Source of the DNA: Dehalococcoidia bacterium
GTDB taxonomy: Bacteria > Chloroflexota > Dehalococcoidia > UBA2979
DNA: 64,000 nucleotides
NCBI GenBank assembly: GCA_965219085.1
Contig: OZ244720.1
Span: 1,888,001-1,952,000, forward strand
Reading direction: 5' to 3'
A program made the translations under genes and the position numbers. Below, in pieces: positions 36,167 to 52,970 of the stretch (position 1 is the first letter of the stretch; each line of letters begins with the position of its first letter). Below the pieces are notes generated by a model that was given only the letters and a program-made list of their open reading frames with translations, did not search any database and was not told the DNA's origin.

Positions 36167-39100
36167 TCAGTTGGCTTCCGGAGGTCCCTCGCTCTTGGCG
36201 ACCAGTGGCGTGATGGGTGGAATGCCGTCCGGGGACAGTTCGCGGAAGGGCTGATTCGCGAACTCCGGTGCGCCGAGGATGTAGGAGACCCACTCCCCGT
36301 CCGCGAGGGCATAGACGGCCGTGACGCGTCGGCTCTCCGCGCAGGCGACCAGCTCCTCGACGCTGCCTCCCTCGTAGACGACGAGGCTGAAGCCCTCGAC
36401 GGCGGCGCCGCGCAGGCACTCGGGCCACGGCTGCGGCCCAGCGGCGTCAAGGTGATCCCCGAACGGGTCTGGCGAGGGAGGTCCGTTGCCGCCGGCGACC
36501 AGCGGCGTCATGACCGGGAGCCCGTCGGCGAACAGCTCAGTGAACTCGCGGTTGACGAAGTTGGGCGCACCGAGGATGTAGGAGACGTAGACGCCCTCGT
36601 GGAGAACGTAGAGGGCTACGACGTGCCGGCTCTGTGCGCAGGCGGCCAGCTCCTCGACGCTCCCGCCCTCGTAGACGACGAGGCTGAAGCCCTCGGCGAC
36701 TTCGCCGCGCAGGCAGTGGGTCCAGGGCTCGGGGGTCGACTGCTCAGCCTCGCCGAAGGCCACGCGGTAGGTCTTCGTGCGGCTGCCATCGGCCGAGGTC
36801 ACGGTGACGGTGATCTCGCCGAGGCCCGGGAGGGCAATCTGGTGGCCGTCCGCCTTCTCGCCGGCGTCGGGCGGGTCGATCACGACGCCGGCGCCGGACT
36901 GCACCGCCGCGGCCTCGACCGTCGTCTCCGCCACGCCCTCGGCGGCGACCCCCGTGTATTCAGTCTCTCGAGGTGAGAACTCCCCGATCTCGATGTCGCT
37001 CATCGTCAGCGTAGCGAGACGGGCGTCGATCGCGTCGGGCATGTTGTAGCTGTAGACCTTGTCGTCGCTGGCGTCGGCGACGTACATCACGTCGCCGTCG
37101 GACCAGAGGCCGCGCGGGCTGTTGTTGCTGGCCCGGCTCAATATGGTGTTGGGGAACTCCTCGTCGCGGACGCGCTCGAGCTCCTTGTCGCCCTCGTCCT
37201 CCTCGTCCGCGTCCGGCTCCCCGGACAGCACGGGCAGGCGGTAGGCGAAGAGCCGCTTGGCGCCGTGGTCGGAGACCCAGACCGTGACGCCGTCGGACCA
37301 GATGCCGCGCGGGTCGTTGTTGGCTGCGTCGAGGGCGCACTCGGCGAGCAGCTCGCCGCTCTCCAGGTCGTACACGAAGACGCTGTCCTTGCCGCCGTCG
37401 AGCACCCACATCGTCTCGCCGTCGGACCAGATGCCGCGGGCGGCACGGTTGCGCGCCGCGAGTTCGATGTCGCGCTCCGCGAGGCGCTCGCCGCTCTCGA
37501 GGTCGTGGGCGAAGAGCTTGTTCTGGCCGCTGTCGGAGACCCAGAGGATCTTGATCTTGCCATCCGACCAGACGCCGCGGGGCGCGCGGTTGCGCTCGTC
37601 GAGCTCGAACTCACGGTCCTCGACGCGCTCGCCGCTCTTGAGGTCGTAGGCGTAGATGGCGTCGTCGGCGCCCGAGCCGTTCTCGAGGAGCCAGAGGATG
37701 GAGCCATTGGACCAGGAGCCGGTGGGCGAGTCGTGGCTCGAGTCGAGCGACTCGATGTCGCGCTTGACGGTCCACTCGAAGTCGACCTCGCTCGGGGTCG
37801 GGCCTGTGGGGCCGCCACCCCCACCCGGACCGATCGGGCCGATGATGATCGGTGGCCTGCTCGGCCTGGTCGTCACCGTGATGGTCACGTCGATGCTCGC
37901 CGTGGCACCTTCGGTGTCGCGCGCCTCGACCGTGACGGCGTACTCGGACGTCGTAGCGGCGTCGAACGTGACCCCCGTGCCGACCGTGATCTGGCCGTCG
38001 GCGTCGATGACGAACGAAAACACGTCGGGGCCCGAGAGGCTGTACGCGAGCGTGTCGTTCTCGTCGACATCCGTCGCCGTCACGGGCGCGCCGACGTGAT
38101 CGCCGGCCTCCGCGCTCTCCGGCACGCTGCGGGTCGCGGCCTGCGACGCGAACGCGGGCGCGTCGTTCACTGGGTCCACCTCCACGGAGACGGTGGCGAT
38201 GTTCGAGAGTGACGGGCTGCCGGTGTCCCGGGCCCGGTAGGTGAACGTGTCCGCGCCGTGGTAGTCGGCGTTGGGCTCGTAGGTAATCGTGCGGCGATCG
38301 CCCGCACTCGCGGGTTCATTCACGCTCGCGCGTCCGTTGAGCGGCGGGGTGACCACCGTCAGCAGCAACTCGCTCGGGTCCTGCTCGGGGTCGCTGTCGT
38401 TGGCGAGGACGTCGATGGTGATCTCGGTGTCCTCGTCGAAACTGCCGGGGGCATCGGCGACGGCGTCCGGCGGCTCGTTCACGTCCGTGACCGTGATCGT
38501 GACCTCGACGGTGTCGAACGCATTGGAGCTGTCGCTGGCCTTGACGGTGACCGTGTGCGAGGGCGCCGTCTCGTGGTCGAGCGATGCTGCCTCCTTCACC
38601 CGGATCTGGCCACTGGCGCCGTCGATCGTGAACAGATCCGATGCGGGCTCGAGCTCGTACCCCACCGTGTTGCCCGGGTCGGGATCGCTGGCGGTGACGC
38701 GTTCCCCGACCGGGGCATCCGCCCGTGCGTTCTCGGCGATGCTGCGGGTCGGGTTCGCCTCCGTGAACGTCGGCGGGTTGTTGACGACGGGGGCTGCCAG
38801 GACCGAGTTGGTGGACACGGCGACGAGGCTCTTGTTCGGCCCGTGGCCGTCGGTGTATGCGGCGGTCGCGCGCAGGTAGTAGCCGATATCTCCCGCGACG
38901 GGCGTGTAGACGCTCGTCGTGGTGCTGTCGGCGGCCCCGGTGACGGCCGTCCAGGGGCCGCCGCGGCTTGTCGAGCGCTCCCACGTCCACGCCGTCGACC
39001 GCACGCCGTCGGGGTCGCCGAGGGTGGCGGTGTAGTCCGCCTCGGCCTGCGGCCGCGTTGCGGGCAGCGCGAGCATCCCGGGCTCTTCCCTGTTCGTGAC

Positions 39101-42100
39101 GCTGACGGCGACAGCCAATGTCGTGGTGTGGGCACCGGCCGAGACACTCAGCGTCACGTCGTAGACGTTGTTCGGGCCGAAGTCGGTCGCGTCCTCGTAG
39201 TCCGGGGCTGCCTTGAACTCCAGCCTCCCGTTCGGGGACGTGAAGTTGAACTGCTCGCTGTCGCTCCCGGCGAGCGGTTGCCAGGCGATGGTGGCGCTCT
39301 CGGGGTCCGACGCCCGGTACGTCCCGACGAGGAGCGTGCCGCCTTCCTCGACGCCCGGCCTGGCGTCGCCGCTGATCGCGGGCGGCTCGTTGACGGGGTC
39401 GACGGTGACGGTGAGGGCGAGGCTGCCCGTCTTGCCGTCGCTGTCGCGGGCGCTGACCGTGATGCCGTAGACGTTGTTCCCGCCCGAGTCGGCGGGGCGC
39501 TCGTGGTCGGGGACGTTCACGAAGGAGAGCACGCCGGCGGCGGTGAGGGCGAAGTCGAGGCGATCCGTCCCGCCCACCGACCACTCGTACGTGAGGGTCT
39601 GGTCGTTCTCCGGGTCGTTCGCGCTGAAGGTGGCGAGCGTGCCGTCATGGTTCTCGGCCACGGTGAGCGCGTTGTTGTTCACGGTGACGCCGCCCGTCGC
39701 CACGAACGAGATATCCGCGGGCTCGTCGACGTTGGTCACGGTGACGGTCAACGTGACGCTGTCGCTCAGGCCGTAGGGGTCCGTAGCGGTCACAACGACC
39801 TCGTACGAACTCCGCGTCTCGTGGTCGAACTGGACGTTGGCTCGCAGTCCTCCGGCGGCCGGGTTCGCGACGGTGAAAGCGTCCGCGTCACGCCCACCGA
39901 GCGTGTAGGTGAGCTGTTCGCCGTCCGGGTCGGTGGCGGTGACGGTGGCGACGACCGCCGACGTGCTGTTGTTCTCCGCCACCTCCTGGGTGTCCGTGGT
40001 GGCCGCAAACGCCGGCGGCCGGCTGGGGACGACCTTGAGAATGCGGTCCGCGCCTCCGCCGTTCGATGTGGTGAGGTAGAGCGCGCCCCCGCGGCCCAGC
40101 ATGGGGGTCCGGAGGCGCCCGTAGGTACCGTCGAGCTCGGGCACGACCACCTGGCTCACGAACCTCCCGGCCGCGGTGAACTCGAAGATCCGGAGCGACC
40201 GGGTCTTGAGCGTGGCGACCGCGAGCCGGCCGCTCCACTCCTCCCAGTCGGGGCCGTGGAGGAAGATGCCGCCGCTGGTCGCCAGCGTCGGGTCGCCGGA
40301 CGACCATCTGGCCTCGACCGCGTCGGGGAACTTCACGCGGTCGGTCATGGGAACGGACTGGTCGTAGCCGGGTACCGGATCCCATCCGTAGTTGCCGCCC
40401 GAGGTCAGCAGGTTGATCTCGTCGTCCACAGTCGGCCCGTGCTCGACCGACCACATCTGGTTCGTGCCGGGGCGGCGAGCGAGGCCCTGCGGATTGCGGT
40501 GGCCGTGGGTGTAGACGCGCGCCGAGGCGGCGAACGGGTTCCCGGGCGCGCCGACGCCCGTCGACGCATCGACGCGGAGCACCTTCCCGCCCAGCGAGCT
40601 GAGGTCCTGCGGTACCGTCCCGGATGCAGCGTCTCCCGTCGCGATCCAGAGGAACCCGTGCGGGCCGAAGCGCAGCCGGCAACCGTTGTGGATGCTGGCC
40701 GCGGGGATGCCCCCGACGAGGGGATCCGCGACACGCGTGGCCGCGGTGTAGTCCGAGTTCATGGTCCAGGCGATCACCTGCACGACGCGCCCGGTGTGCG
40801 CCTGGCAGGTGTAGAACCGCCGGTTGGAGGCGAATCCGGGATCGACGAGGATCGCCATCAGTCCGGCCTCCCCGCTCACGAACAGGTCGCTGAAGTCCGC
40901 CGTCACGGTCTGGACCGTGCCGCCGGTGAGCCGGGCCTTGAGCGCTCCGCCGCGCTCCGTGAGCAGCATCGTCCCGTCCGGTGCGAAGGCGAGATCCCAG
41001 GGAATGCTGAGGCCGGAGACGAGCGTGACGACGGTGATCCCGGGCGCGGCCTCACGCGCGCCGACCGGTTGGCCCGATTCGACCTCGGCGCTCTTGCCCG
41101 TGCCCTCTCCGTCCGCGTAGGTAGCACGGGCCCGGATGTACATCCCCTCGTCGGCGCTCGTCGGTGTGTAGCTTGCGTCGCTACCGGAAACGCTGGTCCA
41201 GTCGGTCTGGTCCGAGGACCGCTGCCACTGCCAGAACACCGACCGCACGCCCCCGTCCGGGTCGCTGATGGCCGCCCTGAGCACGGTTCCAACCCGGGCC
41301 TGAGCGGGCCCCAGCGACACGGCGCCCGCTTCCTCGACGTTGGTGACCGTGATCGTCACGTCGATGGTGTCGCTCAGCCCGTGGCTGTCCGTGGCGGTCA
41401 CCGCGACGGAGTAGCTGGACGCGGTCTCGTAGTCGAGGGCGGCCCTCGTTCGCAGCTGACCCGTCGAGGCCACGATCGCGAAGGAGCCCGCGTCGGGTCC
41501 GCCCAGCGAGTAGCTCAGCGAGTCGCCGCTGTCGGGATCCGTGGCGACGAGCGGTTCGCCGATGTCCTGACCCGAGGCGGTGTTCTCAGGGATGGTGCGG
41601 GCGCCGGTCTCGGTGTCCGGGAAGGATGGTGAGATCGACTGCAGCGTGAACGCGAGGCTCGCGATCCGCTCGGTCGTGAACCTGCCCGTCCCGCGGATGC
41701 TCGTGATGTGGTCGCGCGGGCTGGTGTCGACGCTGGGGCTGAGCGAGAAGTCGTCGCCCTCCTCGCTGCCGGCATCCCACGGGAAGAGGTCCACCTCGTG
41801 CGAGGGGAGCCAGCGGCCCGAGGCATCGAGCAGTAACAGTCCCGAGACGCCGACGAACCAGTCGTGGCTCGGCGCGATCATCGTCGTGACCGTGACCCGC
41901 GGAAACTCGGTTGTGAACCTGCGGTTGCTCAGGGTGCGGGTGGCAGTGGGACTGATGGAGCCGGTGCTGCCCTCGAGGACGGAGAGAGCAGTGGGCGGGT
42001 CGGCGTTCCGCGCCGTGTTGACTTCGCCGCGGAGGGTCGACGTTCCCCCGATTTCCGCCATCGACTCGACGCCCGGACTGGCCGTGCCCCCGCTCTCGAG

Positions 42101-45100
42101 GAAGGTCACGTCGGCGCTGTGCACCGCGCCGATCAGACGCGAGAAGTGCGCCCCGCCAGGGAGACCGTCGGGCGTGACGTCCCTGTTCCACGTGCCCCGG
42201 AAGCGGATGGTGTAGATGGCCGTCGACGCGAAGGGCGCCACCGAATCGCTCGCCGATGGCGTGAGCGACAGATCCTCCTCGGTCCGTGTCACGGTGATGG
42301 TGTAGGTCTCGGTGGCCATGCCGTCCTGCGCGGTGACTTCAACCTTGATGATGTTTTCGCCCACCGACAGGTCGACCTGGACCGGGCTGGCGGTGCCCAG
42401 GCTGTTGTCGTTGCCGTCGAGGAACTCGACGGCCGCGTTCTCGTTGCTCGTGGTCGCTGCGACCGTCGTCCGGGTCACCGTGTACCCGACTGACGGCGTG
42501 TACGAGGTCGTGCCGCTCATGAACGCGGGGGTCAGCCGCACACCACTCAGCGTCAAGGCGCTGAGCGTGGCGTCGTCGGAGAGCGCCGTCGTCCCCATCC
42601 GCGTGGCCGACCAGGGGCCCTCACCTGCGGCGTTCTCCGCCCGCACCTGCACGTCGTACTGCGTCCCGACCTTGAGTCCCGTGACCGTGGCCGTCAGGTC
42701 GCCGGAGGTCCATGCGCCGGACTCGACGGTCCAGTTCGCCTCCATCGTCTCGTCATCGCTAGTCTTGATGTACCGCAAGTCGTAGGACGAAACCGCCGCG
42801 TCTCCGTCCGTGGCGGGCGCGCTCCATTCGACCGTGAGCCCCGACGCGACGCCGGTCACCGAGTCGATCGCCGGGGCGCCGGGCCGTGTCGTACCGACGC
42901 TGGTGGCGGACCAGGCGCCCTCGCCCGCGCCGTTGACCGCGCGCACCTGCACGTCGTACTGCGTGCCGCTGTCGAGACCCGTGACTTCATGCTCCAGGTC
43001 CGGGCCGCCGGAGCTCCACACCTCCGTCTCGACGGTCCAGTTGGCGTCCATCGTCTCGTCCTCGCCGGTCTTGATGTGGCGCAGGTCGTAGGACGTGATC
43101 TCGTCCCCGCCGTCGCTGGCGGGCTCGCTCCACCCGACGGTGAGCGAGCCGCCTGCCCCGGTGACCGCGTCGATCGTCGGAGCGCCGGGCGTGGTGCGCG
43201 GTGTGGCGGTGCGGACGCCCGACCAGGCGTGTTGGTCGGTCCCCACGACCGCCCGCACCTGCACGTCGTAGGAGACCCCGTTGACGAGGCTGGGCGTCGG
43301 GTTGAGCGTGTATTCGAGCGAGCCGGAGGTCCAGATCGACGTGGTCACCGTCCAGCGGGCGTCTGCCTTGTCCGAGGCGTCGCTGCGGATATGGCGCAGG
43401 TCGTAGGAGGTGACGGTTCCCAGGGTCGTGCTCGTGGGCGCGGTCCACTCGATGGCGATCGAGCGGTCGCCTGGGGTGACCGAGTCGATGGTCGGGGCCT
43501 CGTCCGTCGTGGGTGTGCCGGTGGCGGCGTCCGACCAGACGCCGTCGCCGCCGGCGTTCACCCCGCGCACCTGCACGTCGTATTCGGCGTTCCCGGTCAG
43601 GCCGGTGACGACGTGCGAGAGAGCGCCGGAGCCGTCGGTCCAGACGTCCTGCAGGATGGTCCAGTTGGCGTCCACCGTCTCATCGGCGCTGGTCAGGATG
43701 TAGCGCAGGTCGTAGGCGGTGATGTCGGACGCGCCCGTGTTGGTAGGGGCAGTCCAGGTGACGGTGAGCGCCTCGCTGCCGGCCGCGACCGAGTCGACAG
43801 CGGGGGCGGCGGGGCTTGACCGGTGGCCGTACACCGTGAGGCTCCACGAGTTGAGCCGGGCGGCCGTCCCGCCACCCACGTGGTCCGTGATGCGCAGCTT
43901 CCAGACGCCGGCGGGATCCTCGCCAAGGTGCCTGGCGGAACCGAAGCGCACGGGGCCGTCCAGGTTGCACTGGCCCGGGAGGATGCCAAACAACGACGTG
44001 CACTCCCCGCTGCCAACGAGGTAGTGCGGGGAGAGCACGGAGACCGTGCCCGATGGCGACTCGAGCTCGATCTGCAGGTCCCTGAACGCGGCCCTGAGGG
44101 AGGGACGAATCGAGACGAATTCGGTGAACTGCACGCCGGAGCCCATGGTGATGGAGCTGGTGACGGTGGTGGGCGTGCCCGAGGAGGGGAGGTCGGGGAT
44201 CGCCAGATTGGCGGCGCCCGACTCCCGCGTCTCCTCGATGAACAGCGGAAGGCTGGTCCAGCCGACCGCCAGGTCCATCGCCTCCTTGGCGTCGACCACG
44301 CCGAAGCCGTACTCGTGGTTGAACGCGTAGCGCTGGGTCGCGGAGCCGTACTGGAGGGCGCCCTCCTCCCAGCCGGTGTTCGATGGATCGTTCTTCCGGG
44401 CGGAGCCCGCCAGGATGAGCTTCACGTCGCGCCAGGTCAGGTCGGCGTAGGCGCCCCGCAGGAGCGCGGCCACCCCGGACACGATGGCGGCCGTGGAAGA
44501 GGTCCCGCCGAAGTTGTTCCGGTAGCGGCCGTAGTTGTCGGTGGTGGTGATGGCCGCTGGCAAGTAGCTGGCGCCGGAAGGCGCGCATACCCACAGGTTG
44601 GCGCCCTGTTCGGAGTAGTGCCACCGGACACCCCGATCCGTGACCGCACAGGCGGCCGTAGCGGTGTAGTGGTTCCGGAATCCGCTCAGGTTGGAGTTGG
44701 CGCCGACCACCGCGTCGTTGCCGCCGGACCGCACATACAACACCCCCTTGCCGCCGTAGCCCTCCGTGACCCCTCGCACCACCGCCCTTTCCCAGCCCGA
44801 GGGCGCCGTGGCATACCCGGGACCCTCGGTTACCGACCAGCTGTTGTTGCTGATGGCCGTGGTCTCCATCCCCCGCGTCATCGCGTCCGCCGCATTGGCA
44901 TGGTTGTAGTCGTCGATGAGGTTGTAGACATAGATCTGGGCGCGGGGCGCGACCCCCCGAACGCCGATGCCGTTGTCCCGCGCGGCGATGAGGCCGGCGG
45001 CGCCGGTGCCGTGGGTATTTCCGGGATTGAACACGGCTGCGCCGCCGTAGCCGTAGTTGCGGTCCGCAATCACGTTGGGCGCCAGGTCCGGGTGCCCGGC

Positions 45101-46996
45101 GTCAAAGCCGTCGTCGACCAGGGCCACGGTGGCGCCGGCCCCGAGGTGGCCGGCCGCCCACACCTCCCGGACGTTGATGTCCTCGCCCGGCGTCCCGCCC
45201 AGCTGTCCGGTGTTGTCCAGGTGCCACTGGCACCCGGAGAGGGGGTCGCTCAGGGGGTCGCTCAGGGACGCGGTGAGCGCCGTGCACCCGTCGAAGAATT
45301 CGCCGTAGACGTAGTCCTCCCACATGCGCAGCCCGTAACGCCCCGACGTGGGCCCGGAGCTACCGGGCAAACGCGTGACCTTGAGGTAGTACGTTCCCGC
45401 GTCGAGGCGGTCGCGGAGCGTGAACCCGGCGGGCGCGCTCGCGGTGTACCTGCTCTCGAAGATGTTCGCGTCAACGGTGTTGGCGTCCGCGTCCAGCAAC
45501 TCCCCGGCGATGGCGACGGCGGAGCCCGCGGCGACGAGGAGGACATGGGTCGCTTCGGCGAGCTCGATGCGGAAGTAGTCGACGTCGTCCGCCGGGCTGA
45601 TGGTTCCCGCCTTCGGGAACAGCGGGATGAGCGGCTCCGCCGCCGCGGTGGTGCTTCCCGGCTCGGCACCCCGGTTCACGTGGAGCGCGTACACACCGGT
45701 TTCCGCGGGGAAGCCCCCAACCCGCACGTAGTAGGTCCCCACGTCGAGGGTCACACGCACGAAGAAGCGGTTGCTCCCCAGGGGGAATTCCTCGCTGCCT
45801 GTGACCTCCCTACTCCCGCTCAGCCAGAGGTCGCCCCACGTGCGGGCGGGGCCGGTGCTGTGAACCAGCAGGGTGGTGCGCGCGGTCAGCGTGATGCGGA
45901 ACCAGTCCCGGTCGGTCCTCGCCGGATCGATGATCCCCCAGCCGAAGCCGCCGACTTCGACGTCCTGGGCATCGGACCTCGCCGTGGAGTCGGCGACCGT
46001 CGTTGTTCCCAGGACATAAGCGCCCGTGGCGCCGCCGCTGCCCGTGACCTTGACGTAGTAGGTCCCCGCCTGGAGAGAGCCCCAGAGCAGGAAGTTGTGG
46101 CGCCCGTGCAGCTCGTCCCCCAGGTCGTTCTCGCGGAGCAGGTCCCCGTTCTCGTCCAGCAGCTGCCCCACCGTGTCGAGGTCGCCGCGGGTGTAGATGA
46201 TGATGCCGGTCGCCGCCGTCAGCTCGAGCGTGAAGTAGTCGACGTCGGTCCCGGACTCGATCACCCCGCCCATGCGCGTGGTCAGCGGCAGCGTGGTCGC
46301 CGTCTGGAGCGTGCCGCCGTGCTCGGCGGGCGTCCCCGTCGCGGTCGCCGACCAGGCGCCGCCGGTCGCGGCCACGGCCCGCACCTGCACGTCGTAGCCC
46401 GTGCCGTTGGTGAGCCCGGAGAGCACGCCTTCCAGACTCCCGGAGGTCCAGAACTCCTCCAGTACCGTCCAGTTGCCGTCGGCCTTGTCCGTGGCCGTGC
46501 TCTCGATGTAGCGCACGTCGTAGGCCGTGATCTTCGTGGTGGCGGCGGCGGGACCGCTCCACCCGATCGTGACAGCGCCGTCGCCGGCGATGATGGTGTC
46601 GATGACGGGACCGGGGATCCGGGGCGTGCCCGTGGAGGTGGACGACCACTGGCCGTCGCCGGTGGTAACGGCCCGCATCTGCACGTCGTAGCCGACATCG
46701 TTGTCGAGGTCCTCGAGGGTGTAGGTGAGGTCGCCCGACCCGGATGACCAGACGTCCTCGAGCGCGGTCCAGTTGGCGTCGGCCTTGTCCGCCGCGTCAC
46801 TGCGGATGTGGCGCAGATCGTAGGCGGTGATGCCCGTCACGCCGGTGGGCGCGGTCCACTCGATCGTCAGCGAGCCGTCTCCGGCGGTGACGGAGTCGAT
46901 CGTGGGGGCGGCGATGGGCGTCTGCGCAAGAGTGCGACCCGGGGTCACCATCAGCCAGAGCAGGATGAAGGCCGCGAGCAGTCGAGGCCATCTCAT
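36167..46996 (-). CDS. G5: ~3600-aa multi-enzyme surface protein (FN3, PPC, S8 kexin-like protease + P domain, Spondin_N, PQQ glucose/sorbosone dehydrogenase-like, cadherins, C-terminal module)
   Basis: GGAGG before ATG 46996; signal MRWPRLLAAFILLWLMVTPGRTLA; S8 triad motifs VDDG, THGT, GTSS; MIAPSHDWFVGV..PWDAG; HNGCRLRFGP..GHRNPQG. Confidence 0.9.
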   Translation of the reverse strand: MRWPRLLAAFILLWLMVTPGRTLAQTPIAAPTIDSVTAGDGSLTIEWTAPTGVTGITAYDLRHIRSDAADKADANWTALEDVWSSGSGDLTYTLEDLDNDVGYDVQMRAVTTGDGQWSSTSTGTPRIPGPVIDTIIAGDGAVTIGWSGPAAATTKITAYDVRYIESTATDKADGNWTVLEEFWTSGSLEGVLSGLTNGTGYDVQVRAVAATGGAWSATATGTPAEHGGTLQTATTLPLTTRMGGVIESGTDVDYFTLELTAATGIIIYTRGDLDTVGQLLDENGDLLRENDLGDELHGRHNFLLWGSLQAGTYYVKVTGSGGATGAYVLGTTTVADSTARSDAQDVEVGGFGWGIIDPARTDRDWFRITLTARTTLLVHSTGPARTWGDLWLSGSREVTGSEEFPLGSNRFFVRVTLDVGTYYVRVGGFPAETGVYALHVNRGAEPGSTTAAAEPLIPLFPKAGTISPADDVDYFRIELAEATHVLLVAAGSAVAIAGELLDADANTVDANIFESRYTASAPAGFTLRDRLDAGTYYLKVTRLPGSSGPTSGRYGLRMWEDYVYGEFFDGCTALTASLSDPLSDPLSGCQWHLDNTGQLGGTPGEDINVREVWAAGHLGAGATVALVDDGFDAGHPDLAPNVIADRNYGYGGAAVFNPGNTHGTGAAGLIAARDNGIGVRGVAPRAQIYVYNLIDDYNHANAADAMTRGMETTAISNNSWSVTEGPGYATAPSGWERAVVRGVTEGYGGKGVLYVRSGGNDAVVGANSNLSGFRNHYTATAACAVTDRGVRWHYSEQGANLWVCAPSGASYLPAAITTTDNYGRYRNNFGGTSSTAAIVSGVAALLRGAYADLTWRDVKLILAGSARKNDPSNTGWEEGALQYGSATQRYAFNHEYGFGVVDAKEAMDLAVGWTSLPLFIEETRESGAANLAIPDLPSSGTPTTVTSSITMGSGVQFTEFVSIRPSLRAAFRDLQIELESPSGTVSVLSPHYLVGSGECTSLFGILPGQCNLDGPVRFGSARHLGEDPAGVWKLRITDHVGGGTAARLNSWSLTVYGHRSSPAAPAVDSVAAGSEALTVTWTAPTNTGASDITAYDLRYILTSADETVDANWTILQDVWTDGSGALSHVVTGLTGNAEYDVQVRGVNAGGDGVWSDAATGTPTTDEAPTIDSVTPGDRSIAIEWTAPTSTTLGTVTSYDLRHIRSDASDKADARWTVTTSIWTSGSLEYTLNPTPSLVNGVSYDVQVRAVVGTDQHAWSGVRTATPRTTPGAPTIDAVTGAGGSLTVGWSEPASDGGDEITSYDLRHIKTGEDETMDANWTVETEVWSSGGPDLEHEVTGLDSGTQYDVQVRAVNGAGEGAWSATSVGTTRPGAPAIDSVTGVASGLTVEWSAPATDGDAAVSSYDLRYIKTSDDETMEANWTVESGAWTSGDLTATVTGLKVGTQYDVQVRAENAAGEGPWSATRMGTTALSDDATLSALTLSGVRLTPAFMSGTTSYTPSVGYTVTRTTVAATTSNENAAVEFLDGNDNSLGTASPVQVDLSVGENIIKVEVTAQDGMATETYTITVTRTEEDLSLTPSASDSVAPFASTAIYTIRFRGTWNRDVTPDGLPGGAHFSRLIGAVHSADVTFLESGGTASPGVESMAEIGGTSTLRGEVNTARNADPPTALSVLEGSTGSISPTATRTLSNRRFTTEFPRVTVTTMIAPSHDWFVGVSGLLLLDASGRWLPSHEVDLFPWDAGSEEGDDFSLSPSVDTSPRDHITSIRGTGRFTTERIASLAFTLQSISPSFPDTETGARTIPENTASGQDIGEPLVATDPDSGDSLSYSLGGPDAGSFAIVASTGQLRTRAALDYETASSYSVAVTATDSHGLSDTIDVTITVTNVEEAGAVSLGPAQARVGTVLRAAISDPDGGVRSVFWQWQRSSDQTDWTSVSGSDASYTPTSADEGMYIRARATYADGEGTGKSAEVESGQPVGAREAAPGITVVTLVSGLSIPWDLAFAPDGTMLLTERGGALKARLTGGTVQTVTADFSDLFVSGEAGLMAILVDPGFASNRRFYTCQAHTGRVVQVIAWTMNSDYTAATRVADPLVGGIPAASIHNGCRLRFGPHGFLWIATGDAASGTVPQDLSSLGGKVLRVDASTGVGAPGNPFAASARVYTHGHRNPQGLARRPGTNQMWSVEHGPTVDDEINLLTSGGNYGWDPVPGYDQSVPMTDRVKFPDAVEARWSSGDPTLATSGGIFLHGPDWEEWSGRLAVATLKTRSLRIFEFTAAGRFVSQVVVPELDGTYGRLRTPMLGRGGALYLTTSNGGGADRILKVVPSRPPAFAATTDTQEVAENNSTSAVVATVTATDPDGEQLTYTLGGRDADAFTVANPAAGGLRANVQFDHETRSSYEVVVTATDPYGLSDSVTLTVTVTNVDEPADISFVATGGVTVNNNALTVAENHDGTLATFSANDPENDQTLTYEWSVGGTDRLDFALTAAGVLSFVNVPDHERPADSGGNNVYGITVSARDSDGKTGSLALTVTVDPVNEPPAISGDARPGVEEGGTLLVGTYRASDPESATIAWQPLAGSDSEQFNFTSPNGRLEFKAAPDYEDATDFGPNNVYDVTLSVSAGAHTTTLAVAVSVTNREEPGMLALPATRPQAEADYTATLGDPDGVRSTAWTWERSTSRGGPWTAVTGAADSTTTSVYTPVAGDIGYYLRATAAYTDGHGPNKSLVAVSTNSVLAAPVVNNPPTFTEANPTRSIAENARADAPVGERVTASDPDPGNTVGYELEPASDLFTIDGASGQIRVKEAASLDHETAPSHTVTVKASDSSNAFDTVEVTITVTDVNEPPDAVADAPGSFDEDTEITIDVLANDSDPEQDPSELLLTVVTPPLNGRASVNEPASAGDRRTITYEPNADYHGADTFTYRARDTGSPSLSNIATVSVEVDPVNDAPAFASQAATRSVPESAEAGDHVGAPVTATDVDENDTLAYSLSGPDVFSFVIDADGQITVGTGVTFDAATTSEYAVTVEARDTEGATASIDVTITVTTRPSRPPIIIGPIGPGGGGGPTGPTPSEVDFEWTVKRDIESLDSSHDSPTGSWSNGSILWLLENGSGADDAIYAYDLKSGERVEDREFELDERNRAPRGVWSDGKIKILWVSDSGQNKLFAHDLESGERLAERDIELAARNRAARGIWSDGETMWVLDGGKDSVFVYDLESGELLAECALDAANNDPRGIWSDGVTVWVSDHGAKRLFAYRLPVLSGEPDADEEDEGDKELERVRDEEFPNTILSRASNNSPRGLWSDGDVMYVADASDDKVYSYNMPDAIDARLATLTMSDIEIGEFSPRETEYTGVAAEGVAETTVEAAAVQSGAGVVIDPPDAGEKADGHQIALPGLGEITVTVTSADGSRTKTYRVAFGEAEQSTPEPWTHCLRGEVAEGFSLVVYEGGSVEELAACAQSRHVVALYVLHEGVYVSYILGAPNFVNREFTELFADGLPVMTPLVAGGNGPPSPDPFGDHLDAAGPQPWPECLRGAAVEGFSLVVYEGGSVEELVACAESRRVTAVYALADGEWVSYILGAPEFANQPFRELSPDGIPPITPLVAKSEGPPEAN

Positions 46997-47223
46997 GGAG
47001 AACGGCCCTCCGTTGGCCCCGCTGAAACAGCACCCACCCGGACAACGCACGACCCGGCCGCCACCCCAACCGCAAAGTCGGGGCAGGTGCCGGCCGGCAC
47101 CCGCCCGTTCTCATCGTGCGTCCATCAGTCATGCGTCGAGCAGCCGACCCGCCCCGTCGATCCCTCTCACTCGTCCTACGCTAATCGTCCAGAAACAGCG
47201 ACTGCGGGGGCCGTCGGTCCGTC

Positions 47224-47439: not shown

Positions 47440-48789
47440 CCCTGATCCACCGAAGAAGAGCGGGCGAGGGGCTGCGGTTGGGTGCTCCGCTGTAGCTGGG
47501 ACAATGGGTTTTGAGAATTCACGTCACAGCCACAGGGAGCACCCATTCGATGCTACCAACGAGCGACCCCGACCGGATAGACATCGCCTTCGATGACGAC
47601 CGCCTCGTGGACCACGCGGGCCTGCTGCTCCCGGCCACGCTCGCCCAGCATCTCGGTCTGCAAGAGCTCGCCGACAGCTGCGTCGACCTCGGTGACGCGC
47701 CGGGCCGGGCGAACGCCGGCGACAAGCTGCTGACCCTCATCGCCTCGGCGCTCGCGGGCGGCGACTGCATCGACGACGCCGATGCGTTGCGCGCCGGCGG
47801 GACGGCGAGCGTGCTGGGTTGCACGGTCAAGGCGCCGTCCACCCTGGGCACGTTCCTGCGCAGCTTCCGCTGGGGCCACGTCCGCCAGCTCGACCGCGTC
47901 AGCCGCGAGTTGCTCGCTCGCAGCTGGGCGGCCGGGGCGGGACCCGGCGACGCGCCGTTCACGATCGACCTCGACTCGACGATCTGCGAGACCTACGGCT
48001 TGGCGAAGGAGGGCGCCCGGCACCACGGCTACACGGGCGCGCGCGGCTACCACCCGCTGCTCGCGGTGGCGGCCGGGACGGGTGACGTGCTGATGGCGCG
48101 GCTGCGCGAGGGCCGCGCCAACACTGCCCGCGGCGCCGCCCACTTCCTGCGTGAGACGGTGGCGCGGGTCCGCGCTGCCGGAGCGAGCGGGCAGCTCACG
48201 ATGCGCGCCGACAGCGGCTTCTACAACCACGCGGTCGTCGCCGCCTGCCGCGCGCTGGATGTCCGCTTCTCGGTCACGATTCGCCAGCAACCGAACGTAC
48301 GCACGCTGATCGAGGCGATCCCGGAAGCGGACTGGACGCCGATCCCGTACTGGCTGCCGGGCGGCGCCGCTGTCGCCGAGACGTCCTACACCCCGTTCCG
48401 GCACGCGAAGGACGCCAGCGCGGTCCGGCTCATCGTGCGGCGCGTGAGGCCGGCGCCCGGCTCACAGCTGGCGCTCTTCGCGACGTACAGCTACCACGCC
48501 TTCATCACCGACCGCGCGGGGGAGATGATGGAGCTCGAGACCGACCATCGCCGTCACGCCGAGATCGAGAACGCGATCCGCGACCTCAAGTACGGCGTCG
48601 GGCTCAACCATCTCCCCTCGGGCCGCTTCGCCGCGAACGCGGCATGGCTCGCGGTGCAGGTGATCGCGCACAACCTCGCCCGCTGGACGGCGCGGCTGGG
48701 GCTCGGCGAGGGAATCGTGACGACCAGGACGCTCAGGCGGCGCTACTTCGCTCTCGCCGGACGGCTCACCCACTTCTATGAGGGACGGT

Positions 48790-49060
48790 CTTTCCGCAAG
48801 GCCGACGTGGCGGCCTTCTCCGGGTATGGCGCTCCATTCAAGCCGCTCGTGATGTCCGGTCGCGGAGCCTGTGCCAAGCTTCTATCCGCACTCTCGGTGG
48901 GCTACAGCGAGCCCGGTGCATGAAGGCACATCCTGCTTCCAGGGGGCGCTGCTATCTCTGCCGCGTCCTCGATGGGACAAGTGGGTGCTCGCAGTCGCCC
49001 GTGCTCGGCATCACGTGCGTGGCTTCGTTCGCGCTCGGGTCTTCCTTCCTGATCTCCGGT
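48790..49060 (-). ncRNA. Putative bridge/seek RNA of the IS1111-like element (boundaries approximate)
   Basis: Located 3' of the transposase; contains matches to both target flanks (48980-48987, 49004-49009) and to the donor end (48879-48885). Confidence 0.6.
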
Positions 49061-49088
49061 CCCCGCCGGCTGAGGCGGCGCCTCCCGG

Positions 49089-50177
49089 CTACGCGGCCTC
49101 GCGGGCCACGGCGTGACGCAGCGGCTCGTAGACCTCCCCGCTCTTCCACAGCGCGAGCAGCAGCACCGCCAACCGCCTCGCGACGGCCACGACCGCGCGC
49201 TTCTTCGCGTTGCCCGCCCCTGTTCCCGCGTAGCGCTCACCCCAGCGACGCAGGTCGCTATCGGGTCCGAAGGGACCGAGGATGTAGTGCGCGGCCTGCA
49301 CCAGCAGCCGCCGCAAGCCCGCGTCGCCGCTCTTGCCGATGCCGAGCTGCGGCGCGCGCTCCCCTGAGTCGCGCTGCCGCGGCACGAGCCCGAGGTAGGC
49401 CCCCACCTCCCGGTTCTGCGGGAAGCGCCCCGGGTTCTCGATCGTCAGCACGAACGTGAGCGCGGTGATCGGCCCCACGCCGGTGACCTGGCGCAGCGCC
49501 GCGGTCTCGGGGTGGGCCTCGCACAACGCCTCGACCTCCCGCCCGGCCGCCGCGGTGCGCACGGTCAGCTCGCCAATCGCCTCCACCAGCGGCAGCAGCG
49601 CCGGGCGCAGCCCGTCGGGGATGTGGTCCGCCGTCTTGCGGTGAAAGGCCGCGGCCGTGCACGACGGCAGCGCGGCGCCGCAGGCCTTGACGGCCCCGCG
49701 CACGTGGTTGATGAGCAGCGTCCTCGATCGCACCAGCGCGTCGCGGGCGCGCACCACGGCGAGGTCGTGCTGACTCTGCTCGCTCCTGTGGCGGATCGGG
49801 GCGAGCAACTCCGGGTCGAAGCGCCCCAGCCGCGCCAGCCACGCGGCGTCGAGCCGGTCGGTCTTGCGCTGGCTGCCGGCGATCAGCGCGACCTGGCGAG
49901 GGTTGGCGACGACCACCTCATGGCCGAGGTCCGCCACGACGCGGCTCAGCCACGGCGAGCGCGGCCCCGCCTCGAGCACGACCCGCGCCGGGGAGAGGCC
50001 GGTCAGCGCTGCGCCCAGCGCCGCAGCCGCGGTGCGGACGCGCCGCTCGCGTATCACCTCCCCGCCGGCGCCGAGGGCGTGGACGTGCGTGTAACGATCG
50101 CCCACGTCGAGGCCGACGGTGATGGCGGGCCCATCCTTGCCTTCAATGCTCCGCGTCGTTGCGATATGCTGCTGCAT
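49089..50177 (-). CDS. IS110 DEDD transposase/recombinase
   Basis: VGLDVG, VVLEAG, KTDRLDA, GVGPITA, AYLGLVPRQRDSG; intact 362 aa. Confidence 0.92.
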   Translation of the reverse strand: MQQHIATTRSIEGKDGPAITVGLDVGDRYTHVHALGAGGEVIRERRVRTAAAALGAALTGLSPARVVLEAGPRSPWLSRVVADLGHEVVVANPRQVALIAGSQRKTDRLDAAWLARLGRFDPELLAPIRHRSEQSQHDLAVVRARDALVRSRTLLINHVRGAVKACGAALPSCTAAAFHRKTADHIPDGLRPALLPLVEAIGELTVRTAAAGREVEALCEAHPETAALRQVTGVGPITALTFVLTIENPGRFPQNREVGAYLGLVPRQRDSGERAPQLGIGKSGDAGLRRLLVQAAHYILGPFGPDSDLRRWGERYAGTGAGNAKKRAVVAVARRLAVLLLALWKSGEVYEPLRHAVAREAA

Positions 50178-50606
50178 GGCCGGTCTCCTACCTCGTCAAG
50201 GCTCTTCCGAGCCGCTCTTGGCCCATCGAGGCCGCTGTTTCAGGGGGCGAGTATCCCCCTTGAGGAGGAGGCCGGCCCTCATGCCATCTCGGCCCCAGCG
50301 CTGGACCCTGCACCTCCCCAGGCGCTGGCCCTGGGCCGGGCAGCTGGCAGCCGCGCTCGCGCGACTACGGGCGTTACCGCTCCCGGCCTGACGCCCCCTC
50401 ACAGCGCCGGCCCGGGTCCGAGGCTCGCGCCAGCACGCCCGCGCACGCCTCGCGCTCCCGCGCGCTCGCGCCCTCAGCGCCCCCGAGCCGCGCTGAGCGA
50501 CGGCTCCTCGCTCCGGCACCGCCCGGCGAACGCCGGCGCACCCGCCGAACTCTCCGCCAGCCGGCATCCCGCCCCCTCAAGCTTCGATCGGTGTATCCGG
50601 GTTTAG

Positions 50607-51784
50607 GGATGGTCTGAACAACTCGCCTGAGCGGGTGAGCGGATGCGATCATGGGGTGCGGACCCGGAGAGAGGCGCCCCATGCAGCAGCGTTCGTTCGG
50701 CAGCGTCGAGTACGAGCACAAGAAGGTCAAGACACGGCGGCAGACGTTCCTCGAGCGCATGGACAGGCTCGTCCCCTAGGCTGAGCTGGAGCAGCGCATC
50801 GCGCCCGTCTACCCGAAGCCGGGCCGCGGACGCCGTCCCTACCCGCTGCGCGTGATGCTGCGCATCCACTGCCTGCAGCTCTGGTTCAATCTCAGCGACC
50901 CCGGCATGGAGCAGGAACTCTACGACTCCCGCTCGATGCTCGAGTTCGCCGGTCTCAGCCTCTCCGAGCCGATTCCCGATGAGACGACGATCCTCCATTT
51001 CCGCCACCTACTGGAGCGTCATCAGCTGGGAACGGCGCTGTTCGCGACGATCAACGCGCATCTGGCACGGCAGGGGCTGCAGGTGCGCGAGGGGACGATC
51101 GTCGACTCCACGATCATCAGCGCGCCGTCCTCGACGAAGAACCGGGAACGGGCGCGCGACCCCGAGATGCATCAGACCAGCAAGGGCCGGCAGTGGTTCT
51201 TCGGGATGAAGCTGCACAGCGGCACGGATGCGCGGACGGGGCTGGTCCACAGCCTGCACACGACGGCGGCGAACGTCTCCGACGTGAGCGAGGCGCATCG
51301 CCTGTTGCACGGCGCTGAGAGCGCGGTGTGGGGCGATGCCGGCTACCAGGGAGTGGAGAAGCGCCCGGAGCACGCGGGGTCGGAGCTGAGCTGGCAGGTG
51401 GCGATGCGCCCGGGTCTCAGGCGGCGGCTGGCGCCGGGGGGCGCTGAGGCGCAGGCGGAGCGGCGGAAGGCCTCGCTGCGAGCGAAGGCGGAGCATCCGT
51501 TTCTCTACGTGAAGCGGCACTTCGGATACGCGAAGGTGCGCTACCGGGGTCTTGAGAAGAACCGCCAGCGTCTCGCGCTGCTGCTCGGCTTCGCGAACCT
51601 GTTGCGAGCCGAGCCTCAGCTCGCGTGATCGCGGGAGCGCTGCGTCCGGAATCGCTCGTGCGGGCGATCCCGCAGCGGAATCGGGGCGGGATCGCCCCCT
51701 GAACCGCGGCAACGGCCCCGCAGCGCAGCGCGGTACGCCGATCGACCCGCACCGCGCCCGATACGCCACCTGTTCAGATCATCC
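50607..51784 (+). mobile_element. IS5-family element; transposase 50681-51628 with premature TAG (~50777)
   Basis: IRs ggatggtctgaaca / tgttcagatcatcc; flanks TTAG / CTAG; MLRIHCLQLWFNLSD, IVDSTII, WFFGMKLH, WGDAGY, VRYRGL. Confidence 0.88.
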
Positions 51785-51785
51785 C

Positions 51786-52967
51786 TAGTGTCCTGAGTTG
51801 TTAACGCGATAAACAAGCGGGTATGATGTTGGTACAGCGGGGTGTTGCCCGTGTGGGGCAGACGCTGGAGTGTCATGAGTACCCGACTTGGCCGGCCGAC
51901 GGTGGCGGTTGTACTGAGCGACGATGAGCGTGAGACGCTGGAACGGTGGGCGCGCCGACCGACATCAGCTCAGGCGTTGGCGCTGCGCTGCCGGATCGTG
52001 CTTGCTGTGGCAGAAGGGACCCCGAATACCGAGATCGCCGCGGCGCTTGGTTGCCATCCGGTGACCGCGGGCAAATGGCGCAGACGCTTTGCGCAGCGGC
52101 GGCTCGATGGACTGAGCGATGAGCCGCGCCCCGGTGCACCGCGCACGATCAGCGACGCCCAGATTGAAGCGGTGATCGTCAAGACACTGGAAGAACAACC
52201 GCACAACGCGACGCAGTGGTCGACCAGATCGATGGCCGCCGCGGTGGGGATGTCGCAGACGGCGATCTCCAAGATCTGGCGCGCCTTTGGCCTCAAGCCA
52301 CACCTCGTGGAGCACTTCAAGCTGTCGCCGGACCCGCAGTTCATCGACAAGGTGCGCGACGTGGCTGGACTCTATCTCAACCCACCGGAGGCAGCGGTCG
52401 TCTTGTGTGTTGACGAGAAGACCCAGATCCAGGCACTCGACCGCACCGCCCGATGCTGCCGATGATGCCGAGCGTTCCGCGACGCCAGACCCACGACTAC
52501 GTCCGTCACGGCGCCACCAATCTCTACGCGGCGCTTGACGCCGCCTCGGGCCACGTGATCGCGGACATGACCCCGCGACACCGTGCCCGGGAGTTCAAGC
52601 AGTTCCTCACCCTCATCGACCGCAGCGTGCCCGACGAACTCGCGATGCATGTCGTGTTGGACAACGTCGCCACGCACCGCACCCCGGAGATCCAGCGCTG
52701 GCTGCGGCGTCATCCCCGGTTCACGTTTCATTTCACCCCGGCCTACAGCTCCTGGATGAACCTCGTGGAGCGCTGGTTCGCGGAGCTCACCACCAAATGG
52801 CTCAGGCGCGGCACTCATCACGGCGTCGCTGACCTGATCCGTGCAGTGGAGGCCTGGGTCGCCGACTGGAACGAGCACCCGCGCCCCTTCATCTGGCACA
52901 AGACCGCCGACCAAATCTTCGACAACCTCACCGGATATCTCAATCGCATTCCCAACTCAGGACACTA
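51786..52967 (+). mobile_element. IS630-family element; transposase 51875-52968 frameshifted at ~52452
   Basis: IRs tagtgtcctgagtt / aactcaggacacta in a CTAG context; CVDEKTQIQALDR, VLDNVATH, SSWMNLVERWF. Confidence 0.88.
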
Positions 52968-52970
52968 GCT

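Follow-up and report, generated by a model that had tools for sequence, protein, structure and literature searches.

The window analysed here is a stretch of 64,000 nucleotides (nt) from the genome of a Dehalococcoidia bacterium (assembly GCA_965219085.1, contig OZ244720.1, positions 1,888,001 to 1,952,000); coordinates are window positions unless marked as genome positions, and the whole genome searched comprises 3.31 Mb in one contig. The window contains an insertion sequence (IS) assigned to the IS110 family, which lies inside the transposase gene of another, IS1380-like, element and whose 3' non-coding end holds a candidate bridge/seek RNA. The features are collected in Table 1.

Table 1. 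Features of the insertion sequence, its predicted guide RNA and the interrupted host gene (window positions; tnp, transposase gene; c1 is the window copy, c2 and c4 are further copies in the same genome).
Feature	Position	Strand	Basis and remarks
Whole insertion sequence	48775..50289	-	1515 nt with one of the two CT core copies (AG in transposase sense); empty IS1380 sites, RNA-library junction contigs, 10 further genome copies
Interrupted host gene, IS1380-like DDE transposase	47511..48774, remainder from 50290	+	PF13701, 168 bits; uninterrupted copies
Subterminal inverted repeat, arm at the 3' (right) end	48778..48791	.	pairs with 50269-50282
Subterminal inverted repeat, arm at the 5' (left) end	50269..50282	.	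pairs with 48778-48791
Intact 362-residue DEDD transposase/recombinase	49089..50177	-	PF01548, 67.7 bits; PF02371, 68.5 bits; NF033542
Conserved structured non-coding RNA scaffold (bridge/seek RNA candidate)	48872..49010	-	39-sequence alignment A1 and RNAalifold
Part of the P1 5' strand, not a guide (RNA UGCCGAGC, 49003-49010)	49004..49009	-	paired in fold, chance frequency, no covariation
Right-target guide, RNA cacccaCU	48980..48987	-	complementary to the tnp-sense strand of right flank AGtgggtg; unpaired in fold
P3 hairpin, separates the two target-guide strands	48964..48979	-	fold and alignment
Left-target guide, RNA ggcagAG	48956..48962	-	same sense as left flank; exact for c2 and c4 (gggcagAG), one mismatch to c1 flank (ggccgAG)
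Tentative right-donor guide, RNA ugccuuCa	48921..48928	-	6/8 complementary to 5' terminus AGatggca
Left-donor guide, RNA auagaAG	48879..48885	-	identical to element 3' terminus ...catagaAG (7 nt exact)

The boundaries of the element were fixed with six uninterrupted IS1380-like copies from the same genome. These have a single CT at the site, reading ...ggctcacccaCTcgg... or ...cacccaCTccg..., and the flanks of the window copy, joined by a script, align to such copies over 199-200 nt with 94.5-98.5% identity. In contigs of three RNA-library runs from one study, position 48774 is joined to 50294 with CGG between (the RNA-library data as a whole, four runs from two studies, are Logan contigs, which say nothing on transcription, strand or ends and in which gaps in cover are meaningless). 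Because the empty sites and the junction contigs have a single CT, the element is delimited with CT on either side, the second copy of the core being at 48773-48774. There is no target duplication beyond this shared dinucleotide, and the same single-core pattern is observed at IS3-like (11 empty) and IS5-like (8 empty) sites. The joined ends of the element (donor) read ...catagaAGatggca.... The two arms of the inverted repeat (14 nt, 86% complementary) are set 3 and 7 nt in from the element ends, and the non-coding region downstream of tnp is 314 nt long (48775-49088) versus 112 nt upstream (50178-50289). The initial annotation, made from the letters alone, had placed the element at 48765-50296, slightly padded with respect to the real span; the sequence strings that it quoted are all present at the positions it gave, and its account of the repeats, of the insertion into another IS and of the restoration of an intact IS1380 target on removal of the element is borne out.

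The transposase gene is intact, as had been claimed, and its product has the domain pair of the IS110 family, an N-terminal DEDD/RuvC-like PF01548 domain and a C-terminal PF02371 domain. The NCBIfam model NF033542 ('IS110 family RNA-guided transposase') scores 231.9 bits against a cutoff of 140. According to the cited sections of two published descriptions, subterminal inverted repeats that are 7-17 bp long and set back from the ends are typical of the IS1111 group (PMC11208160, PMC11187229), and the motif GL-P----S(t)G and a long non-coding region downstream of tnp are features of the IS1111 family (Siddiquee et al. 2024, PMC11187229). Here the repeats are subterminal and 14 nt long, the longer non-coding end is downstream of tnp and the motif is present as GLVPRQRDSG, which supports placing the element in the IS110 family with IS1111-type architecture, in agreement with the initial annotation; the grouping is one by architecture and not by a protein tree. 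Over residues 21-300 (~77% of the length) the protein is 28.1% identical to the transposase of ISEc11, 25.9% to that of IS5075 and 25.5% to that of IS4321, and its best plasmid-borne relative reaches 35%. The only solved relatives found by phmmer are ISCro4 (E 3.7e-10) and IS621 (E 1.4e-8), with the alignment limited to the C-terminal 130 residues.

The genome holds 11 copies of the element (c1 to c11, the window copy being c1), and 80 loci (L numbers below) with 49-98% protein identity were obtained by scanning one genome per species. The titles of the 80-locus records name metagenome-assembled genomes (MAGs) of Dehalococcoidia, Chloroflexia, Acidobacteriota, Gemmatimonadota, Myxococcota and others, the nearest relatives being labelled Dehalococcoidia. 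The RNA scaffold is present in 85 of 90 sequences (the 80 loci and 10 own copies). Alignment A1 consists of 39 of the 47 distinct RNA sequences from the window and the loci; L023 and L029, in which the 3' part is replaced, and the near-duplicates L041, L057, L073, L075, L080 and L087 were left out.

Three consensus helices are obtained with RNAalifold: the long-range P1 (UGCC/GGCA), P2 (GGGCG-CUGC/GCAGCG-CCC) and P4 (GCACC/G-GUGC). P1 closes the RNA, the arm made of P2, an internal loop and the P3 hairpin forms the predicted target-binding loop, and P4 together with P1 flanks the predicted donor-binding strands. Across the 18 consensus pairs 97.4% of the alignment cells are paired, and changes on both sides are found in 8 of the 18; none of 500 shuffles reaches any of these measures, and in slid controls 24-47% of cells are paired. 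P3 has four or more closing pairs in 36 of the 39 sequences (with a register shift of 1-2 nt allowed), its stem being varied in sequence (GUCC/GGAC, GAAC/GUUC, GGUC/GACC, GGCC/GGCC, GGAC/GUCC). The consensus helices include G-U pairs of both types (UG and GU), also in P1 of the window copy, where UGCCGAGC pairs with GCUUGGCA. Both strands of the internal loop between P2 and P3 are the two target guides, and in the single-sequence fold of the window copy they are unpaired save for one lone C-G pair. Folding of the minus-strand RNA, the check proposed in the initial annotation, leaves the right-target guide unpaired.

A 19-nt inverted repeat (89%) between 48963-48981, the P3 hairpin, and 50217-50235, a conserved hairpin in the tnp leader, was considered as a possible RNA-RNA contact and rejected, since copies of the c7 type have not retained it and repeats of this size are common in this DNA. 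The 6-nt loops of the two hairpins are complementary in the window copy and not in c7-type copies. The repeat may be due to chance.

The guides can be read from the copies in the same genome. With respect to the window copy, c2 is 100% identical, c4 99.9%, c3 97%, c5 90%, c6 88% and c7-c11 87%; an open reading frame (ORF) of 361-362 codons is kept in all of them (with a GTG start in c7-c11), and the transposases are 78-100% identical. Aligned in the transposase sense, the 3' end is well conserved save for two short blocks, for which the mean pairwise identity among 12 close sequences is 38.9% (the first, 5' block) and 50% (the second, 3' block, including the fixed AG), as compared with 91.9% for the remaining 128 columns. 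The 3' block reads in the same sense as the left flank, and the 5' block is complementary to the right one; both blocks include the core. Flanks and blocks were compared after removal of tail duplications. In the window copy the left flank ggccgAG stands against the 3' block ggcagAG, and the right flank AGtgggtg against the 5' block cacccaCU; c2 and c4 have the same blocks and the left flank gggcagAG, the right end of c4 being lost. For c5 the left flank and 3' block are both ccaccAG and the right flank AGcagctcg faces the 5' block cgagcugCU, while for c6 the left pair is ccgcatAG and ccgcauAG and the right pair AGcagccug and caggcugCU. In c7-c10 the left flank tcaagAG corresponds to ucaagAG, and AGctaccgcc to ggcgguagC. 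The left guide agrees with the left flank at 7/7 positions in c2, c4, c5 and c7-c11, at 8/8 in c6 and at 6/7 in the window copy, and the right guide with the right flank at 8/8 in c1 and c2, at 9/9 in c5 and c6, and over 9 contiguous nt in c7-c10. Each of the four guide classes matches its own flanks, save for the discordant c3 and c11, and the comparison of flanks that had been suggested initially speaks for the proposal. The string agtgggtg occurs 3 times in the 64 kb on both strands (1.87 expected, or ~0.01 per 314 nt), and CTctgcc, at the place of the left guide, 6 times. In L023, a 98%-identical element in another genome, ggccgAG is found at the left-guide place, an exact match for the IS1380 variant occupied by the window copy.

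Covariation of guides and targets among relatives is the route by which bridge RNAs were found, and the same signal is seen between genomes. In a search without constraint on position, the longest match to the right guide within 1.3 kb downstream falls mostly directly after ...CAT(A/G)GAAG, and the longest upstream match to the left guide mostly directly before AGAT.... The ends were then fixed by guide-independent motifs, giving 73 distinct guide/flank combinations. Matches of at least 8 nt between the right guide and the flank are present in 41 of 66 cognate and 15 of 4657 non-cognate comparisons; the corresponding numbers for the left guide are 24 of 68 and 40 of 4781. In six loci from two other MAGs (L023, L034, L036-L038 and L040), the 5' end is without its first 2-3 nt and abuts a common foreign sequence (...ccagttagccgggcgctc), perhaps a further element that was inserted at the IS end or recombined with it.

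Two intervals, P2 to P4 and P4 to P1, hold the predicted donor strands. The left-donor strand, the string CTtctat already noted initially as matching a donor end, covaries with the termini: it reads auggaAG in L049 and L052, in which the termini are catggaAG. The second donor guide, unclear at first, may be the strand at 48921-48928; this strand changes together with the 5' ends in L045, L049 and L052 (5 contiguous nt each).

The element is very probably an IS of IS1111 architecture whose 3' non-coding end encodes a bridge/seek RNA, given its boundaries, the conserved structure and the covariation of guides with flanks within and between genomes. By analogy with characterised relatives, this RNA would be produced, bound by the transposase and used to direct recombination. 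Its 5' loop strand cacccaCU (48987-48980) would pair with the sense strand of the right half-target and its 3' loop strand ggcagAG (48962-48956) with the antisense strand of the left half-target, the AG core being part of both guides. A second pair of strands flanking P4, ugccuuCa (48928-48921) and auagaAG (48885-48879), would read the element's own 5' and 3' termini as the donor. The RNA-loaded DEDD recombinase would excise the element as a circle joined at AG, as in IS621, ISEc11 and ISPpu9, and the circle would be inserted at gg c(a/c)g AG tgggtg in IS1380-like elements with no duplication beyond the shared core. The protein may deserve the description, given in the initial annotation, of a new programmable recombinase.

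That annotation had also arranged the target guides differently, combining 48980-48987 with CTcggc at 49004-49009 (gccgAG in the RNA), 16 nt away, in the IS110-type order. Both strings are indeed present and gccgAG is exact to the left flank of the window copy, yet this layout is hardly credible. CTcggc occurs 138 times in the window, so that ~0.7 occurrences per 314 nt are expected by chance; it is part of P1, conserved and covarying in the 39 sequences; and in copies whose targets differ (left flanks ccaccAG, ccgcatAG and tcaagAG) the region still reads gccgaac or gccgggc, while the block at 48953-48963 changes to match them. Since this 6-mer is frequent by chance, lies inside a conserved stem and is unchanged where the targets differ, it is not a target guide; the true partner is the strand at 48956-48962, and the order given initially is to be reversed, the complement of the top strand being 5' of the complement of the bottom strand. 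The choice of agtgggtg holds, this string being rare, located in a hypervariable loop strand and covarying with the flank, and so does the main proposal, that in its 3' non-coding end the element has complements of both strands of its own target and of its own ends. A different explanation would dispense with RNA altogether: the protein would read the DNA, or subterminal single-stranded DNA would pair with the target as in IS200/IS605, the fold being a DNA or protein-binding feature. Complementarity alone cannot separate RNA from DNA pairing, and the low-depth RNA-library contigs cannot show a transcript. We consider this very unlikely, as the G-U pairs in the consensus helices are valid only on the transposase-sense strand, and as recognition by protein alone cannot account for four specificities when the proteins are 78-100% identical and the loop strands follow the flanks; moreover, according to the cited sections, transposition of characterised relatives depends on an RNA that is purified together with the transposase (PMC11187229, PMC11208160).

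The history of the window copy allows one more alternative, namely that it was carried to this place by duplication or gene conversion between IS1380 copies, its site with the single mismatch not being a true target of its guide. The mismatch itself, the presence of c2 and c4 in perfectly matching variants, and the fact that conversion between copies does occur (c3) are in favour of such an event. It is nonetheless improbable, if less so than the two preceding explanations. The elements c1 and c2 are 100% identical over 1515 nt and c4 99.9% to c1, whereas their host IS1380 flanks differ by 6-11% (90.6-94% alike for c1 and c2, 88.5% for the c4 host flank); because the elements are near-identical while the host flanks differ, c1, c2 and c4 are best described as separate recent insertions and not as one copied IS1380::IS composite. 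Single mismatches outside the core are also reported as tolerated by IS621, in the cited section of PMC11208160.

Several observations weigh against an RNA that guides the element in the way proposed. The left guide of the window copy mismatches its own flank at one base, and the right-donor guide agrees with the 5' terminus at only 6/8 positions. The copy c3 (genome 340394-341911) has guides of the c1 type, and its site is of the c7 type (IS5-like). Its first ~240 nt, from another lineage, are closest to c6 and 72-89% like c1, and the rest is 99-100% identical to c1, so that it is a mosaic from recombination between copies. In c11 the left flank is as expected and the right flank is unrelated to its guide. 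The left-flank statistic between genomes is noisy: the loose 5'-end motif often matched the ribosome-binding/start region, and many cognate left scores of 3-5 are therefore due to mis-located ends. The single-sequence fold of the window copy is no better than that of shuffled sequences (z -0.64; 49 of 200 shuffles fold as well), for which reason the alignment fold was relied on, and its donor part folds differently from the consensus. The RNA-library contigs cover 48786-48889 and 48960-49167, the latter running from the gene end into the RNA region, at a depth of 2-5 only, and DNA carry-over could account for them. A search of 48300-50800 against Rfam (evalue mode) gave 0 matches, so no curated family covers this RNA. 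Scanning 48700-50400 for promoter and terminator consensus sequences yielded 0 sites of either kind, which is uninformative in GC-rich DNA, and a look by eye for a hybrid promoter across the joined ends revealed nothing convincing.

The copies differ also in their later history. The 100-nt flanks are common to c7, c8 and c9, which may be one insertion event copied. In c4 (genome 1333208-1334571), a deletion took the last 151 nt of the element, with the donor strands and the 3' end, and ~84 nt of the host IS1380, and left the gene and the target-binding loop in place. Behind the full copy, parts of the element's 3' end are duplicated in tandem in c6 (genome 2850004-2850740), c2 (59 nt), c5 (78 nt) and L044. 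The four tails of c6 are ~324, 119, 177 and 119 nt long, and the first of them contains a second guide-RNA gene in full. The tails have 5 distinct restart points (c2, c5 and three in c6), each preceded in the parent sequence by AG, which fits recombinase action at look-alike AG sites. In c10 and c11 an ORF-less group II intron of ~907 nt (L010:3026-3932 for c10, the same place in L011) is located 15 nt from the IS 3' end, on the strand opposite to the transposase, with Rfam scores of 95.1 bits (RF02003) and 44.8 bits (RF00029).

Around the element, the window has further transposase-like ORFs at 50852-51628, 51842-52465 and 52453-52968, making this an IS-rich patch, and just upstream of the IS cluster a 3627-residue ORF with repeated domains (36167-47050, minus strand). 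The segment 22119-22339 is 81% identical to part of the transposase gene (query 597-829), which points to another, more distantly related copy or fragment of the IS110 family.

The landing sites in this genome are in or near other mobile elements. The IS1380-like gene is the site of c1, c2 and c4, an IS3-type rve gene (at ...YNTKRPH|SSLGW) that of c6, and a DUF772/IS5-IS1182-type gene (at ...EAWASLK|) that of c3 and c7-c11; c5 is in the neighbourhood of another IS110-family gene. Uninterrupted sites left in the genome number 6 IS1380-like, 11 IS3-like and 8 IS5-like, and perfect predicted targets are still free for c6 (10) and for the c7-type (6), with none for the c1-type and none for c5. In related MAGs, 9 of 10 flank ORFs picked by eye and run against Pfam have transposase or IS21-helper domains: IS110 (L024, L026), IS1380-like (L030), IstB (L032, L050), IS3 (L039), DDE_Tnp_1(_6) (L052, L033) and HTH transposase parts (L044, whose other ORF is HTH only). 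This suggests the same pattern of landing in IS, with some of the matches adjoining the insertion rather than spanning it; the flanks of L046, L051, L053 and L067 are not IS-like by eye and were left out of the Pfam set. It is conceivable, and we put it forward tentatively as the less probable side of the question, that a clade of RNA-guided IS makes its living inside other IS, changes in two short loop strands re-aiming one conserved RNA scaffold at conserved parts of unrelated transposase genes or at IS ends. Such a habit would give access to many sites where insertion does no harm and which spread with horizontally transferred DNA, and the tail arrays at internal AG sites would then be scars left where the recombinase acted on similar sites of the element's own 3' end, sometimes creating extra stand-alone guide-RNA genes. 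A limited literature search for reports of IS110/IS1111 elements that target other IS turned up nothing specific apart from the papers cited here, which is not proof of absence.

The biology of the element is not new in kind, and the one thing that a specialist might not expect is that other IS are chosen as landing sites again and again. What is added is a distant, high-GC lineage of RNA-guided recombinases (at most 35% identity to plasmid-borne relatives and 25-28% to named IS1111 members), in which the guide positions are now readable and backed by natural covariation in ~70 distinct insertions. The four natural specificities in one genome, on proteins 78-100% identical, are a ready-made reprogramming series.

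Among known systems, and as far as the cited sections go, the element resembles ISEc11, ISPa11 and ISKpn4 in layout (PMC11187229). It shares with them a DEDD transposase with GL-P----SG, subterminal repeats with short terminal extensions, a long non-coding region downstream of tnp, and a complement of the top strand that is 5' of that of the bottom strand, the two overlapping at the insertion point. For the IS1111-family seekRNA the same order, top-strand complement first, is given by Siddiquee et al. (2024, PMC11187229), and the order in the window RNA corresponds to it on the assumption that the published top strand is the transposase-sense strand. Unlike these elements, for which 330-350 residues are quoted (PMC11187229), the transposase is 362 residues long, the host is of high GC content, the proteins are ~25-28% identical over residues 21-300, and the window element is known from sequence alone. 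For IS621 the logic of left- and right-target guides, with inclusion of the core, was defined by Durrant et al. (2024, PMC11208160), and the target guides of the window RNA conform to it in their sense and in taking in the core. Like IS621 and ISCro4 (PMC11208160; PDB 8wt6, 9t56), the element has two guide pairs, for target and donor (the right-donor guide being tentative), each of which would read opposite strands around a 2-nt core included in the pairing, and no target duplication beyond the core. In contrast to these two, as described in the same sections, the RNA is at the 3' and not the 5' end, the order of the guides within the loop is reversed, and the target arm is nested in a long-range stem bounding the donor strands instead of forming one of two consecutive stem-loops. 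With ISPpu9/MITEPpu9 of Pseudomonas putida (Pares-Guillen et al. 2025, PMC12288879, cited sections) it has in common AG at both ends, alternative AG sites that are usable and tandem tail modules beside the IS; there the extra module is a separate small RNA gene flanked by copies of the IS ends, whereas here the modules are 59-324-nt pieces derived from the 3' end of the element itself, and every one of them restarts behind an internal AG. The use of another mobile element as a landing site by a sequence-specific IS of this family has a precedent, which the window element shares. Unlike in that precedent, the landing sites here are inside or beside transposase genes of IS1380-, IS3-, IS5/IS1182-, IS110- and IS21-type, and one scaffold appears with several specificities in one genome.

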